Below, piece after piece: positions 24,370-29,587 of a stretch of DNA of 64,000 nucleotides. A program made the translations under genes and the position numbers. The stretch is from an uncultured Gemmatimonadales bacterium (GTDB lineage: Bacteria; Gemmatimonadota; Gemmatimonadetes; Longimicrobiales; Gaopeijiaceae). The notes under the pieces were generated by a model, which made no database searches, was not told the origin of the DNA, and saw nothing but the letters and a program-made list of their open reading frames with translations. The DNA is taken from contig CAWELD010000003.1 of NCBI GenBank assembly GCA_963809895.1, positions 2,112,001 to 2,176,000 on the forward strand, given 5' to 3'. Positions within the stretch are counted from its first letter, which is position 1, and every line of letters begins with the position of its first letter.

Positions 24370-26112
24370 ATGATCCGCCGCGCATTCCTCGCCCTCACCG
24401 CGTCGTTGGCCCTGGCCGGCCCGGCGGCGGCCCAGGCCGGCACGCACTACGATGTGCTCCTCGCCGGCGGTCACGTCATGGACGGGACCGGCAATCCCTG
24501 GTTCCAGGCCGACGTGGGCATCCGTGACGGGCGCATCGTGGCGGTGGGACGTCTGGCGGGCGCCACGGCGGAGCGGACCATCGATGCGCACGGTCTGGTG
24601 GTGGCGCCGGGGTTCATCGACATGCACTCGCACGCCGACGACGGCAGCGCCCGCATCGGCGGCGCCACCATCCGCACCGACTCGCTGCGCCGCAAGGCCA
24701 TGCCCAACATCGTGGCCCAGGGCGTAACCACGGTGGTGGTGAACCAGGACGGGCGCTCGCCCTGGCCCATCTCCGGGCAGCGGGACCTGCTGCGCGAGCA
24801 GGGCACCGGGGGCAACGTCATGCTCATGGTGGGACACGGAGAGGTGCGTCGTCAGGTCATGGGCGACGACTATCAGCGGCCGGCCACCGACGACGAGATC
24901 CGCCGGATGCAGGCGCTGGTGCGGCAGGGGCTGGAAGAGGGCGCGGTGGGCCTGAGCGCCGGGCTCGAGTACGTCCCCGGCCGCTGGAGCACCACCGACG
25001 AGGTGGCGGCGCTGGCCGAAGAGCTGGTCCCCTTCGACGGGGTCTACATCAGCCACGAGCGCAGCGAGGGCGCCGATCCCATGTGGTACTGGCCCAGCCA
25101 GGACGACCCCGGCGCCCCCACGCTCCTGGACGCGGTCATGGAGACCATCGAGATCGGTCGCCACTCCGGCGCGAAGGTGGTGGCCTCGCACATCAAGGCC
25201 AAGGGTGCCCACTACTGGGGCTCCAGCCACGCCGCCATCCAGCTCATCGAGTCGGCCCGCGCCGAGGGCGTGCGGGTGTGGGCGGACCAGTATCCCTACC
25301 CCACCAGCGGCACCGACGGCAACACGGTGCTGGTGCCCGACTGGGCGCTGCGCGATCCTGGCGACCGGCGGCGCGAGGACCGCCGCCCGCCCGCCGAGGT
25401 GCTGCGCGAGAAGCTGGCGGACCCGGTCACCGCCGCCGAGGTCCGCCAGGACATCACCCACGAGATCCGCCGCCGGGGCGGGGCCGGACGGGTGGTGGTC
25501 TTCGAGTATCCCGACACGTCGTTGGTGGGCCTGTCGCTGGCGGAGGTGGCCGAGCGCTGGGAGCTGGACCCGGTGGAGACCGCCATCCAGCTCCAGCTCC
25601 GGGGCGATCCCCAGCGCCCGGGTGGTGGCCGCATGCGGGGGTTCTCCATGTCCGAGGACGACGTGGAGGCCTACGCCGCCCGGCCCTGGGTGGCCACGGC
25701 GTCGGACGGCGGGCTCGCCCACCCCGACGACGGCGGCTCGGTACATCCGCGCTACTACGGCACCTTCCCGCGCAAGATCGCCTGGTACGCCCGGGATCGG
25801 GGCGTGCTGTCCGTGGAGAACGCCGTGCGCTCCATGACCTCGCTGCCCGCCCTGCTCATGGGACTCCGGGACCGGGGTCTGATCCGGGAGGGCTTCGTGG
25901 CCGACGTCACGGTCTTCGACCTGGACGAGCTGGAAGACCGCGCCACCTTCTTCGAGCCGCACCAGTATCCGGCGGGCATCCGCTACGTCATGGTGGGCGG
26001 CCAGTTCGTGGTGGACGAGGGCGAGCTCACCTGGGCGCTCCCCGGACAGGTCATCACCGCGGACCAGCGGGGCTCGGCCGAGGCGGGACCGGTCATGCAG
26101 GAAGCGCGGTAG
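24370..26112 (+). CDS. Secreted N-acyl-D-amino-acid deacylase family amidohydrolase
   Basis: Signal peptide; APGFIDMHSH, GLEYVPG, DQYPY and HPRYYGTFPR motifs. Confidence 0.9.
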   Translation: MIRRAFLALTASLALAGPAAAQAGTHYDVLLAGGHVMDGTGNPWFQADVGIRDGRIVAVGRLAGATAERTIDAHGLVVAPGFIDMHSHADDGSARIGGATIRTDSLRRKAMPNIVAQGVTTVVVNQDGRSPWPISGQRDLLREQGTGGNVMLMVGHGEVRRQVMGDDYQRPATDDEIRRMQALVRQGLEEGAVGLSAGLEYVPGRWSTTDEVAALAEELVPFDGVYISHERSEGADPMWYWPSQDDPGAPTLLDAVMETIEIGRHSGAKVVASHIKAKGAHYWGSSHAAIQLIESARAEGVRVWADQYPYPTSGTDGNTVLVPDWALRDPGDRRREDRRPPAEVLREKLADPVTAAEVRQDITHEIRRRGGAGRVVVFEYPDTSLVGLSLAEVAERWELDPVETAIQLQLRGDPQRPGGGRMRGFSMSEDDVEAYAARPWVATASDGGLAHPDDGGSVHPRYYGTFPRKIAWYARDRGVLSVENAVRSMTSLPALLMGLRDRGLIREGFVADVTVFDLDELEDRATFFEPHQYPAGIRYVMVGGQFVVDEGELTWALPGQVITADQRGSAEAGPVMQEAR

Positions 26113-26136
26113 CTTCCCGCGGTGGGGGCCGGCGAC

Positions 26137-26997
26137 CTACGCCGTCCCCCCCTCTTCGCCCATGATCCCTTCCATGGCGGCCTCCAGCGCCCGACGCAGC
26201 TCGGCCGCGGTGGCACCCATGTGGAAGGCGGCCACCGCCACGGGCCGGAGCAGGCCCTCCAGCGCCTCCCGACGCTCCGAGCGCGAGGCATCGCTCCGGC
26301 CGGGCTCGGCCACCCGGGTACCCCGGGCGCCCTCGGTGACCACCACGCCCAGGCGCTCGAGCTCGGTGTAGGCCCGGGCCACCGTCCCGGGGGCGATGTC
26401 CAGCTCGTCGGCCAGGCGCCGCACCGGCGGCAGGCGCTCGCCGGGTGTCAGCGCGCCGGTGGCGACGCCCTCCCGCACGCGGGAGACGATCTGCTCGTAG
26501 ATGGACTCGGACGAGGTGTCGTCGATGCGAACGCGGAAGCGGCCCCGTGGCGGCTCGGCGCCCGCGACCCCGCGCAGCTCGAGCGTCAGGCTGCGGGCAG
26601 CCTCCGGCGTCACACCGAGCGTCCGCAGCACGTTGGCCGCGATGCCCTTCTCTTCTCGCAGGAGTCCCAGGAGAATGTGCTCCGTGCCTACGTGTGCCTG
26701 ATCGAGCTCCCGGGCGGCGGCCATGGCCAGCTCCAACACCTTCTTGGCCCGCGACGTGTAGGGAAGCTCGCCCAGGGCCGGGCCGGCTGAACCGCGCCGA
26801 ACCGCGGCCGCGACCCGCTTGCGCACCTCCTCGGGGTCCACACCCAGCCGGTCCAGCACCTCGTTACCCACGCCGCCGGCATCCAGCAGCCCGAGCAGCA
26901 TGTGCTCAGTTCCCACGTAGTCGTGCCGGAAGCGCACGGCCTCCTCTCTCGCCCGCGCCAGCGACAGCCGCACACGGTCCGTGAAGTTGTACTTCAT
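26137..26997 (-). CDS. Clp N-terminal double-repeat domain fused to a GntR (YtrA-type) transcriptional regulator
   Basis: FTDR..GTEHMLLGLL and YTSRAKKVLE..GTEHILLGLL repeats, then IYEQI..GERLPPVRRLA..TVARAYTELERLG; GAGGGG RBS. Confidence 0.9.
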   Translation of the reverse strand: MKYNFTDRVRLSLARAREEAVRFRHDYVGTEHMLLGLLDAGGVGNEVLDRLGVDPEEVRKRVAAAVRRGSAGPALGELPYTSRAKKVLELAMAAARELDQAHVGTEHILLGLLREEKGIAANVLRTLGVTPEAARSLTLELRGVAGAEPPRGRFRVRIDDTSSESIYEQIVSRVREGVATGALTPGERLPPVRRLADELDIAPGTVARAYTELERLGVVVTEGARGTRVAEPGRSDASRSERREALEGLLRPVAVAAFHMGATAAELRRALEAAMEGIMGEEGGTA

Positions 26998-27014
26998 CGA
27001 GCCCCCCTCAATCT

Positions 27015-27073
27015 TGTACCAGTCTTCTTGGAACATGACGATGCTGCGCTCTTGTGTCAACTACATTGATACA
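27015..27073 (-). promoter_or_regulatory. sigma70-type promoter overlapped by two palindromic YtrA-like operators
   Basis: Minus strand TTGACA-N17-CATGTT (27060-27032); operators TGTACCA-N7-TGGAACA (27015-27035) and TGTGTCA-N7-TGATACA (27053-27073). Confidence 0.75.
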
Positions 27074-27196
27074 AAGAGACCCTCCGCGGTGCTCCGCAGC
27101 TTGCTCCGCTGACGCTCTCCCACCCACCTTGCGGGGTTCCCGCGTCGTGGCCCGCCACGCTCTCGTTGACGTTCGAACATCCCGCTGGAGGCCTTC

Positions 27197-28081
27197 GTGA
27201 ACTGGTCCGAGATCCTCTCCGTCGCCGACCGGATCCTGCAGTACGAATTCCACATCGGGGGCCAGGCGGTAAGCGTCCTCGACCTGGTGATCTTCGTGGG
27301 CATCCTCATGCTCACCTGGATCGTGTCGAGGCTCATCCGCCGCGGGTTGCAGGGCGTCCTGGACCGGCGCGGGGTGGACGATCCCGGGACCGTGGCGGTG
27401 ACGACCCGGATTCTCCACTACGCGATCATGGCGGTGGGGCTCCTGACAGGGCTCTCGCAGATCGGCATCAACCTCTCCGCCCTGTTCGCCGCCGGCGCCG
27501 TGTTCGCCGTGGGGATCGGCTTCGCGCTGCAGACGCTGTCGGAGAACTTCGTCTCCGGCGTCATCCTCCTCATCGAGCGCTCCATCAAGCCCGGTGACAT
27601 CCTGGAGGTCAACGGCGAGGTCATCCGGGTGCAGCGCATGGGAATCCGCACCACCATCGGCCGCAACCGGGACGACGAGGAAATCATCATCCCCAACAGC
27701 ACACTGGTGAGCACCGCGGTCACCAACTACACGCTCCAGGACTCGATCATCCGGATCCGGGCCGCGGTGGGCGTGGCCTACGGATCCGACATGAAGCAGG
27801 TCATGGACGTGCTCCGGGAGATGGCCGATGGACTGGAGTGGCGGCTGGGCACCTACGATCCCGTCGTGCTCCTCACCGACTTCGCCTCGTCGTCGGTGAA
27901 CTTCGACGTGTCGGTCTGGATCGCGGACCCGTGGCGGGCGCCCCGGCGCCGCTCGGACCTCATGCACGGCGTCTGGAACGCCCTCGCCGATGCGGGCATC
28001 ACCATCGCCTTCCCGCAGGTGGACGTGCATTTCGACCGTCCCTTCGAGGAGGCGCTCGACCGCCTTCCCAAAGCGTCCTGA
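27197..28081 (+). CDS. Small-conductance mechanosensitive channel (MscS family)
   Basis: GIGFALQTLSENFVSG, IKPGD, IIIPNS, VGVAYGSD and GITIAFPQ motifs. Confidence 0.93.
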   Translation: MNWSEILSVADRILQYEFHIGGQAVSVLDLVIFVGILMLTWIVSRLIRRGLQGVLDRRGVDDPGTVAVTTRILHYAIMAVGLLTGLSQIGINLSALFAAGAVFAVGIGFALQTLSENFVSGVILLIERSIKPGDILEVNGEVIRVQRMGIRTTIGRNRDDEEIIIPNSTLVSTAVTNYTLQDSIIRIRAAVGVAYGSDMKQVMDVLREMADGLEWRLGTYDPVVLLTDFASSSVNFDVSVWIADPWRAPRRRSDLMHGVWNALADAGITIAFPQVDVHFDRPFEEALDRLPKAS

Positions 28082-28093
28082 GGAGCACCGGAC

Positions 28094-29587
28094 ATGGGCC
28101 CCAGCGACGTTCTCCGGGATCTGGAGCTCCTCCTCCGCTCGGGCCACGGGCTGGTGCAGCTCGAGGCGCGAGACGAGGCGCGCGCCGCCACCCTCCTGGA
28201 GCTGGTGGCGAACCGCCTGGAGATCCCCTTCCTCACCTGGACCCGCTCACGGGGATTGCTCCGGCGTGACATGCCCTCGCCGGTGTATGAGACCGAGCAC
28301 CTGGAACAGGCGCTCACCCATGTCGTGCACGCCGACATCGATGCGCTCTACCACTTCCAGGGCGTCAGCGGAGAGGCGCTTCGTGGCGAGCTGATCGCGG
28401 CCCTGGTGCGAGACGCGGCCCGGGCCATGGAAGGCCGAGTGGGCGCCATGGTGATGACCGGTGGAGCCCTGGCGCTGCCGGAGTCACTCGAGGGTCTGAG
28501 CACCACCGTGCGACTCCCGGGCCCTTCGACCGACGAGCTCCGGGCGCTGCTGGGCCAGGTCGTGCGCGACGTCTCGCAGCGCCAGGACGTGAAGGTCAGC
28601 CTGTCCCGCGAGGAGACCGCACAGCTCCTCCGCCAGCTCTCGGGACTCACCCTCACCGAGGCCGGCAAGGTGCTGACGCGCTCCATCGTCGAGGACGGGT
28701 CGCTGGACGCCGGCGACATCGCCAACGCCGTCGAAGCGAAGCGGCGCATCGTCGAGCGTGACGGGCTGCTGGAGTACTACCCGGTGGAAGCCTCGCTGGC
28801 CGACGTGGCGGACCTGACGGGCTTCAAGGGCTGGCTCGCCGCGCGCACGGAGGTGGTGCGCCATCCCGCACGAGCGCGCGAGGCCGGCCTGCCCTTTCCG
28901 CGGGGCGTGCTCCTGCTGGGCGTGCCCGGCTGTGGCAAGAGCCTGTCGGCCAAGGCCGTGGCGGCCGAGTGGCAGATCCCCCTGCTGCGCCTCGATCCCG
29001 CGGCTCTCTACAACAAGTACATCGGCGAGAGCGAGCGGAACTTCAAGCGCGCCATGCACACCGCCGAAGCCATGGCCCCGGTGATCCTGTGGATCGACGA
29101 GCTGGAGAAGGCGTTCGCGGCCGGCGGCACCGAAGACGGCGGCGTGTCGCAGCGCATCCTGGGCACCTTTCTCTCGTGGCTCCAGGAGCGGAAGGGCGAC
29201 GTCTTCGTGGTGGCCACCGCCAACGAGGTCCAACGGTTGCCCCCGGAGTTTCTCCGCAAGGGTCGCTTCGACGAGGTGTTCTTCGTGGACCTTCCGGACT
29301 CCGCCACCCGCAAGGAGATCTTCCGGATCCACCTGGCCGCCCGGGATCAGGACCCCTCGGCCTTTCCGCTGGCGGAGCTGGCCGCCGCCAGCGAGGGCTT
29401 CAGCGGCTCCGAGATCGAGCAGGTGGTGGTGTCGGCGCTGTACGATGCCTTCGCCGACCACGGCACGCTCTCCGGCTCGATGCTGGAGGCCGAGATCGCC
29501 CGCACGCGCCCCCTGTCCGTGACCATGGCGGAGCCCATCGACGCGCTCCGTCGGTGGGCCCAGGGGCGTACCGTCGGCGCCAACTGA
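28094..29587 (+). CDS. AAA family ATPase, Ycf46-like
   Basis: Degenerate N-terminal module; Walker A GVPGCGKS, Walker B LWIDELEK, SRH FLRKGRFDE; C-terminal LRRWAQGR. Confidence 0.88.
   Translation: MGPSDVLRDLELLLRSGHGLVQLEARDEARAATLLELVANRLEIPFLTWTRSRGLLRRDMPSPVYETEHLEQALTHVVHADIDALYHFQGVSGEALRGELIAALVRDAARAMEGRVGAMVMTGGALALPESLEGLSTTVRLPGPSTDELRALLGQVVRDVSQRQDVKVSLSREETAQLLRQLSGLTLTEAGKVLTRSIVEDGSLDAGDIANAVEAKRRIVERDGLLEYYPVEASLADVADLTGFKGWLAARTEVVRHPARAREAGLPFPRGVLLLGVPGCGKSLSAKAVAAEWQIPLLRLDPAALYNKYIGESERNFKRAMHTAEAMAPVILWIDELEKAFAAGGTEDGGVSQRILGTFLSWLQERKGDVFVVATANEVQRLPPEFLRKGRFDEVFFVDLPDSATRKEIFRIHLAARDQDPSAFPLAELAAASEGFSGSEIEQVVVSALYDAFADHGTLSGSMLEAEIARTRPLSVTMAEPIDALRRWAQGRTVGAN

Follow-up and report, generated by a model that had tools for sequence, protein, structure and literature searches.

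A Clp_N-GntR fusion protein of Gemmatimonadota as a candidate autoregulated sensor of ClpC N-domain ligands

The fusion gene and its protein

The window analysed here is a stretch of 64,000 nucleotides from an uncultured Gemmatimonadales bacterium of the Gaopeijiaceae (assembly GCA_963809895.1, contig CAWELD010000003.1, positions 2,112,001 to 2,176,000), and the gene under study is a coding sequence of its minus strand (26137..26997) in which a double Clp_N domain of the ClpC type is fused to a GntR regulator of the YtrA type. It is a single open reading frame (ORF), running from the ATG at 26997 to the stop codon at 26137-26139 and encoding 286 amino acids. The Pfam scan of the protein detects Clp_N in two stretches (E 1.1e-31, 109.1 bits against a cut-off of 20.7) and GntR at residues 167-229 (E 8.4e-14, 51.4 bits against a cut-off of 27), and finds neither an AAA+ domain nor the CtsR domain PF05848. 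The solved structures closest to residues 4-143 are those of the Bacillus subtilis ClpC N-domain, including its complex with phospho-arginine (pArg; 5hbn, E 1.7e-31), and residues 159-280 match the YtrA-like protein Lmo2241 (4ham, E 1.6e-13). A first-pass annotation of the locus, made from the sequence, had proposed a complete double Clp repeat joined in frame to a YtrA-type GntR regulator with no AAA+ module, and Pfam, the structure matches and the structure model all agree with it.

The ATG at 26997 is the likely start, since the N-terminus it gives, MKYNFTDRVR, resembles the MNYNFTDRVR of the ClpC encoded in the same genome and a Shine-Dalgarno-like GAGGGGGG (27002..27009, minus strand), read from the sequence, is placed 5 nt upstream; an alternative gene-caller model (P0002, 299 aa) begins 13 codons earlier. 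The AlphaFold model, built from an alignment of 54 sequences, has a mean predicted local distance difference test score (pLDDT) of 88.9 and consists of two confident domains, a linker and two C-terminal helices. Its predicted template-modelling score is 0.55, and therefore the relative placement of the two domains is not fixed. The linker (residues 144-153; 26539..26568, minus strand) appears flexible, with pLDDT below 50 at residues 145-152, and is poorly conserved (mean column conservation 0.23-0.24). Within the fusion family, mean conservation is 0.75 for the DNA-binding part and 0.73 (0.73-0.79) for the C-terminal helices, while the Clp_N part reaches 0.49.

The GntR winged helix-turn-helix occupies residues 154-232 (26302..26538, minus strand) and opens with the YtrA-type stretch F-x-V-x-IDD-x-S-x-x-SIYEQI. 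Its recognition helix, PGTVARAY, is invariant in the family alignment; in the wing, G-A-R-G-T-R, R225 is invariant and R228 nearly so. The best NCBIfam model for the protein is the equivalog of the YtrA-type Rv1152 family (NF053730), which scores 67.2 bits and so stays below its cut-off of 170, and in Foldseek the C-terminal part superposes on 4ham with a template-modelling (TM) score of 0.78. The two helices that follow (residues 239-259 and 264-275 by DSSP of the model; 26173..26283, minus strand) are the putative YtrA-type dimerisation element: as in YtrA proteins, the C-terminal part is a short pair of helices expected to form the dimer, without an effector-binding domain. Contrary to what is usual in GntR proteins, the helix-turn-helix is not N-terminal but begins around residue 154, after Clp_N, so the N-terminal sensor is indeed atypical, as had been pointed out in the earlier annotation. 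A symmetric homodimer through residues 245-281 is predicted with an ipSAE (interaction prediction score from aligned errors) of 0.60 (0.58-0.60 over three runs), against 0.00 for the best of three controls; at least 96% of the contacts agree among the runs, and the partner is modelled with a pLDDT of 79 or higher. When the tool was calibrated, 20 of 30 solved homodimers passed the mark used for this call, as did 1 of 23 proteins whose structures are single chains. The pass may reflect likeness, because the input was a custom alignment and YtrA-type dimers have already been solved. No Clp_N residue belongs to the confident interface, and the residues it leaves unnamed are uncertain, which does not mean that they make no contact. 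The strong conservation of the recognition helix and of the C-terminal helices fits a conserved operator. At one carrier locus (genome G214, L122 7303-7680, minus strand) a stand-alone GntR gene of YtrA size (125 aa) adjoins the fusion in divergent orientation, and it is possibly related to the gene that donated the DNA-binding half.

The double Clp_N domain covers residues 4-143 (26569..26988, minus strand). Its fold is that of the N-domains of ClpC1 and ClpC (Foldseek TM 0.85-0.94, root-mean-square deviation 1.1-2.1), as for 6pbs_B (0.93 and 1.7) and for the pArg complex 5hbn (0.85 and 2.1), the latter being the overlay that the first-pass annotation had proposed. Across 152 residues it shares 63% identity with the N-domain of the ClpC of its own genome. 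A 35-nt direct repeat (26659-26693 and 26884-26918, 77% identity, spacing 225 nt, that is 75 codons) is a trace, at DNA level, of the two Clp repeats. As pArg-site residues we considered the Thr-Glu pair in each of the two GTEH motifs, together with the Thr and Arg that begin helices alpha1 and alpha5. All eight are present in the window copy at the positions previously noted: T6/R8, T30/E31, T81/R83 and T105/E106, which align with T7/R9, T31/E32, T81/R83 and T105/E106 of B. subtilis ClpC. They may pair as a site A (T6/R8 with T105/E106) and a site B (T81/R83 with T30/E31). The surroundings of site B, ALGELPYTSRAKKVLE and REEKGIAA, are identical between the fusion and the ClpC of its own genome.

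Promoter, operators and detectable regulon

The promoter of the fusion gene has a perfect -35 box, TTGACA (27055-27060), followed 17 nt further on by a -10-like CATGTT (27032-27037), and the same arrangement lies upstream of the fusion in every carrier examined. Two candidate operators of the minus strand cover these elements. The first, O1 (27052..27074, TTGTATCA-N7-TGACACAA, one mismatch), overlaps the -35 box, and the second, O2 (27014..27036, ATGTTCCA-N7-TGGTACAA, two mismatches), overlaps the -10-like element and the expected transcription start. We take TTGTAYCA-N7-TGRTACAA as the consensus, because the divergent members at loci L214 and L217 carry two clean palindromes. At least one palindrome with no more than three mismatches occurs within 250 nt upstream of the fusion in 18 of the 19 published carrier loci, and two palindromes, 29-40 bp apart, are found in 13 of them, the motif being retained down to 39-45% protein identity. 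As background, such a site is held by only 16 of 731 windows of 250 nt from 15 of these loci, a count in which the promoter windows themselves are included. The loci of two unpublished genomes share the motif and were left out of the 19-locus count.

In the 5.3-Mb genome to which the window belongs, no site other than O1 and O2 has two mismatches or fewer, and at four mismatches the 59 matches fall within the 57-71 obtained in shuffled sequence. In four other carriers all zero-mismatch sites of an earlier pattern, weighted on the -35 box, lay in the promoter of the fusion. Since O1 and O2 are the only good genomic sites, the detectable regulon is the fusion gene itself. The first-pass annotation had supposed that the protein converts its signal into transcription; the conserved candidate operators agree with this, but they occur only at its own promoter, so that the transcription concerned would be its own.

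Other targets were considered and rejected. Upstream of clpB a CTTGTACCA box (G000 C3:552344) has four mismatches to the full palindrome, which is the background level. The same place holds a sigma-54-like TGGCAC-N5-TTGTA (G000 C3:552330-552352), about 70 nt upstream of an 888-aa ClpB-like ORF with Clp_N, and CTTGTACCA lies inside it by coincidence. No operator site was found upstream of mcsA or elsewhere at mcsA-mcsB-clpC. The divergent genes for an MscS-type channel and an AAA+ ATPase, next to the fusion in the window, both adjoin the amidohydrolase gene in the same-genus genome G249, without the fusion there. Scans with a single 10-mer box were uninformative because their matches are mostly coding Trp-Tyr-Lys codons, and a metagenome scan for further promoters was of no use, since one of its two search patterns was the GTEH motif and all 80 loci returned were ClpC N-domains.

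Family, evolution and genomic setting

From 5.8 billion proteins searched, 8000 candidates were scored and 4328 of them matched at E <=0.001. Both Pfam domains are carried by 118 of the 120 best matches, which are about 270-340 aa long, and the sources of these 120 that name an organism give Gemmatimonadota, Gemmatimonadaceae or Longimicrobiaceae. Single-stretch full-length matches make up 45 of the best 150 in a library of representatives at 50% identity, BLASTP recognises 169 full-length fusions among 268 stored proteins (query excluded; 53 of the 169 are representatives), and in the protein Atlas a cluster of 196 members joins Clp_N to GntR and is most frequent in Gemmatimonadota. The family thus counts at least 169 full-length homologues, and almost all those with a named source belong to Gemmatimonadota. 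At the locus itself, near-identical contigs from three metagenome DNA runs of three studies span 26720-27400, a segment that takes in the 5' part of the gene and its promoter and reaches into the beginning of the adjoining gene. The fusion is recurrent and is not a chimera of this assembly, a doubt that the first-pass annotation had raised.

Searching with the C-terminal half (residues 150-286, E <=1e-25), we found the fusion in 12 of the 401 Gemmatimonadota genomes sampled, which represent 10 of 147 genera; a sample restricted to one family gave 10 of 401 genomes and 9 of 78 genera. Both counts comprise the unpublished genomes G157 and G182, and they replace a whole-protein count (7 of 301) that was an undercount, because matches to ClpC mask the divergent copies. 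Four other genomes of the same genus gave no match to the fusion search; one, G249, carries a very divergent copy (39% identity, with a degenerate Clp_N) at a different chromosomal site. The gene is accessory. At the syntenic site of G249 the whole segment of gene and promoter (26113..27196, 1084 bp) is absent: the stop codon of the amidohydrolase gene and the start codon of the MscS gene are separated there by 17 bp, against 1084 bp in the window, with the fusion on the opposite strand. Around the insert we found no boundary repeats and no mobile-element genes, its GC content shows no anomaly against the surroundings, and PADLOC has no defence family matching the fusion.

Among 76 ClpC N-domains of the phylum all eight pArg residues are invariant (R83 in 75) and mean conservation is 0.91. 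The fused copies, placed in a tree with 122 N-domains in all, fall among those of Gemmatimonadota ClpC, on branches of 0.4-0.9 against a median of 0.03; the sample holds 35 of the 110 database fusions, and two rows from unpublished genomes were dropped. The free tree does not join the fused copies in one clade and needs five changes, while a single clade is not rejected by the approximately unbiased test (p 0.274); a single origin is neither shown nor rejected, because of the long branches. Two observations concern the same domain elsewhere. The PHROGs family phrog_35667 (phage family, profile length 235) matches the Clp_N part of the fusion (E 6.7e-27), and therefore some phages encode stand-alone proteins like the ClpC N-domain. 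Five proteins returned by the searches (P0122, P0125, P0171, P0210 and P0256) are long chains of repeated Clp_N-like stretches, with 11 matched stretches in the 1762 aa of P0125 and 9 in the 1375 aa of P0256.

As for the partners of ClpC, the genome of the window encodes an mcsA-mcsB-clpC operon (G000 C3:1091115-1095298; L008 5115-9298, minus strand) whose products are an McsA with UVR motif (173 aa), an McsB of 375 aa (PF00217, E 1.5e-61) and a ClpC of 832 aa; no CtsR (PF05848) was found in this genome, which is 95% complete. We found mcsB in 149 of the 151 Gemmatimonadota genomes sampled and in all four of the other published fusion carriers considered, and, judging from these genes, the arginine-kinase system is phylum-wide. 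The arginine kinase that a pArg reading presupposes is thus found in this genome and in those bearing homologues. The proposed check on co-occurrence with mcsA, mcsB and clpC gave a positive answer for the own genome and is otherwise uninformative, since mcsB is nearly universal and the fusion occurs in about 3% of the genomes.

The neighbours of the fusion vary among eight carrier loci, and it stands alone in most other carriers. No conserved operon partner is claimed: the families that recur (amidohydrolases, M20 peptidases and beta-lactamase/DUF3471 proteins) may just be frequent in the phylum. Enzymes that hydrolyse peptide or amide bonds often adjoin the fusion (L119 9116-10702, L122 8852-13300, L011 971-2761, L012 4037-5347 and, in the window, 24370-26112), their types being beta-lactamase/DUF3471, M20 peptidase, alpha/beta hydrolase and amidohydrolase; at L122 three hydrolase genes come after the fusion in the same orientation, overlapping or separated by short gaps. 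In a phylum rich in peptidases such neighbours may be due to chance. On the other side of the fusion the MscS-type channel gene (27197-28081, plus strand) is followed after 13 bp by a gene (28094-29587, plus strand) for a 497-aa single-AAA ATPase whose N-terminal part of 250 aa is unassigned and whose AAA part matches PADLOC IetA models (E 1e-24). In G249, too, the two genes lie together beside the amidohydrolase gene.

Proposed function and alternative readings

The nearest functional parallel is mycobacterial ClpC2, which the first-pass annotation had fairly named as a precedent. ClpC2 is described as an autorepressor that binds two pseudopalindromic operators across the -35 and -10 of its own gene, from which cyclomarin A releases it (PMC10030653, 2023), and pArg and pArg-casein are described as releasing it through loss of oligomers (PMC13345244, preprint 2026). 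Like ClpC2, the fusion combines a module resembling the ClpC N-domain with a DNA-binding module and lacks AAA+, has two conserved palindromes over its own -35 and -10, as far as sequence can tell, and at family level keeps one pArg pocket better than the other; the logic of sensor plus sponge proposed below is also the same. The differences are nevertheless considerable. Clp_N is C-terminal in ClpC2 and N-terminal in the fusion, which is predicted to bind DNA and dimerise by its GntR module, whereas ClpC2 does so by its own N-domain. The ClpC2 operator is CGTCAAC-N5-GTTGACG, unlike the consensus given above. ClpC2 keeps the pocket of alpha1 and the alpha5-alpha6 loop, which would be site A, while the fusion family keeps site B better; ClpC2 is about 40% identical to ClpC1, against the 63% between the fused Clp_N and the host ClpC; and the host phylum of the fusion has a recognisable McsB. 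The fusion also matches ClpC2 chains far more weakly (9p2p, E 3.3e-13; 8ad9, E 1.9e-8) than it matches ClpC N-domains (E 1e-31).

With the latter, in B. subtilis ClpC and Mycobacterium tuberculosis ClpC1, the window copy shares the fold, 45-48% identity and the eight pArg-contact positions, but it is free of AAA+ rings and evolves much faster than the ClpC N-domains of the phylum. From the YtrA subfamily (Lmo2241, Rv1152 family) it has the winged helix followed only by two dimer-forming helices, and the N-terminal IDxxSxxPIYxQI-like stretch; it differs from these proteins, which have about 120-130 aa and no sensor domain, in the 150-aa N-terminal Clp_N and in having no ABC transporter operon beside it. 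CtsR, which regulates the clpC operon in Firmicutes, is likewise a winged-helix repressor tied to the McsB/ClpC pathway, but it has no sequence relation to the fusion, and no operator was found at the clpC operon here. As a lead, an 88-member cluster of the protein Atlas, commonest in Cyanobacteriota, joins Clp_N (100%) to ArsR-type HTH_20/HTH_5 (99% and 95%) and could be a third, separate architecture of Clp_N with a DNA-binding domain (feature score 0.78). In searches of open full text, subscription journals not being covered, none of the papers listed dealt with the Clp_N plus GntR architecture, and nothing pertinent on McsB of Gemmatimonadetes came up. The earlier statement that the architecture is uncharacterised therefore holds for the fusion itself, but the concept of a pArg-responsive repressor with a Clp N-domain is already in print for ClpC2, and Clp_N-GntR is an independent build of it.

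It is possible to hypothesize, with a probability that we put at about 0.5, that the protein is a ligand-released autorepressor and a buffer of the ligands of the ClpC N-domain, pArg-proteins being the likeliest ligand of the window copy. It would be a dimeric YtrA-type repressor whose N-terminal extension is a recent duplicate of the Gemmatimonadota ClpC N-domain, flexibly tethered. In the ligand-free state, dimers would sit on the two palindromic operators covering the -35 and the -10, and the gene would be nearly silent. A build-up of the molecules that usually bind the N-domain of ClpC would lead the Clp_N domain to capture them; for the window copy these would most likely be arginine-phosphorylated proteins made by McsB. 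Operator occupancy would then drop, either through bulky cargo beside the winged helix or through lost contacts between operator-bound dimers, and the derepressed protein would accumulate and soak up the ligand, so that sensing and buffering would limit themselves. What the sequence data establish is the architecture, the family and its accessory occurrence, the conserved promoter with two operators and the lack of further good sites; that the gene is repressed, which ligand acts, that binding frees the operators and that the protein buffers are what we infer. Given its eight residues, pArg binding by the window copy is plausible, above all at site B.

Several points weigh against this proposal. 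Under the strict definition of the two quartets, site A is intact in 9 of 54 fusion representatives, site B in 22, both in 6 and neither in 29; the pArg reading of the first-pass annotation is thus plausible for the window copy and much less so for the family. Counting Thr or Ser and Glu as sufficient raises the figures to 19 for site A, 39 for site B and 42 for either (n=53), and among all full-length fusions (n=170) the strict counts are 79 for site A, 123 for site B, 68 for both and 36 for neither. Judged from these alignments, site B is mostly kept across the family and site A mostly lost, and this decay means that pArg sensing cannot serve every member. The window copy also has an alpha2-alpha3 loop, lining site A, that is one residue shorter than in ClpC and different in sequence. 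The pairing of the residues rests on two-fold pseudo-symmetry and on one pocket of ClpC2, described as formed by the alpha1 N-terminus, the alpha2-alpha3 loop and the alpha5-alpha6 loop (PMC13345244). Moreover, since about 97% of the mcsB-bearing genomes have no fusion, the pArg system works without it and the fusion is no core part of it. The motif scan may miss targets with weak or single half-sites, and the one RNA-library contig over the region (27159-27400) covers the 5' end of the MscS gene and none of the fusion, although contigs cannot show absence.

The alternative that survives best is that the gene is an accessory resistance element, whose Clp_N imitates the N-domain of the host ClpC as a decoy, pArg binding being incidental: natural products, or proteins of phages or competitors, aimed at the ClpC N-domain would bind the decoy, derepress it and be titrated. 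Much of what was described above suits this idea, namely the patchy occurrence in the phylum and within one family, the insertion between two genes that are direct neighbours in G249, the variable neighbours, the predicted self-contained autoregulated promoter, the long Clp_N branches, the loss of pArg residues in many members and the 63% identity with the target to be mimicked. Yet a decoy that evolves fast would diverge from an invariant target which it needs to mimic, no PADLOC defence family was matched, and to our knowledge no N-domain-directed compound or protein has been described for Gemmatimonadota. A role as cyclomarin sponge has been shown for ClpC2, and F2, F80 and E89 of ClpC1 are given as critical for cyclomarin (PMC10030653); the corresponding residues are K2, Y80 and E89 in the fusion and N2, Y80 and E89 in the ClpC of its own genome, and therefore the known compounds are unlikely ligands. 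We regard this reading as unlikely on the whole, but the accessory distribution, fast-evolving sensor and self-only regulon of the gene leave a decoy or sponge role as a strong rival. In the same tentative sense, the unit could be a mobile and self-contained target-mimic cassette, spread horizontally among soil and wetland Gemmatimonadota, that shields ClpC from agents attacking its N-domain.

Somewhat more doubtful is the idea that Clp_N senses nothing and is a module for protein-protein contact or oligomerisation, for instance bridging the dimers on O1 and O2, in an otherwise ordinary autoregulated YtrA-type regulator. ClpC2 is described as oligomerising via its Clp_N-like domain (PMC13345244). 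The 29 representatives with neither quartet intact, the very degenerate Clp_N of some members (the G249 copy among them) and the spacing of the paired operators, which suits a dimer of dimers, point the same way. However, the confident part of the predicted dimer interface is free of Clp_N residues, the residues at site B are kept above the average of the domain (0.49), with Thr or Ser at position 81 in 48 of 54 representatives and E31 in 46 of 54, and the window copy keeps all eight pArg residues.

McsB inactivates CtsR by phosphorylating arginines of its winged helix, and phosphorylated McsB binds the ClpC N-domain. A switch of this kind, with Clp_N recruiting auto-phosphorylated McsB to phosphorylate the wing arginines and so remove the repressor from DNA, would fit the invariant R225, the nearly invariant R228 and a genome with mcsA-mcsB-clpC but without CtsR, yet it is improbable, as no operator site was found at mcsA-mcsB-clpC or clpB, about 97% of McsB-bearing genomes lack the fusion, the absence of CtsR was seen in the one genome tested and wing arginines are common across GntR proteins.

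The ligand-released autorepressor thus remains the reading we favour, and the rarity, variable location and self-only regulon of the gene favour a buffer or a decoy over a master stress regulator. ClpC2 is the sole earlier example known to us of a transcription factor with a Clp N-domain, and no arginine kinase is known in its phylum; Gemmatimonadota have a clear McsA-McsB-ClpC system, and therefore a link between arginine phosphorylation and transcription could be tested in them with every component available. The compact unit of promoter, operators and repressor is also a possible pArg-responsive genetic switch. Reading the protein as a buffer or decoy bears on how an essential protease is protected from overload or attack, and, if the target-mimic cassette were true, it would join actinobacterial ClpC2 and the cyanobacterial Clp_N/ArsR-type family as evidence of a repeated bacterial invention of sensor-sponges from the Clp N-domain.

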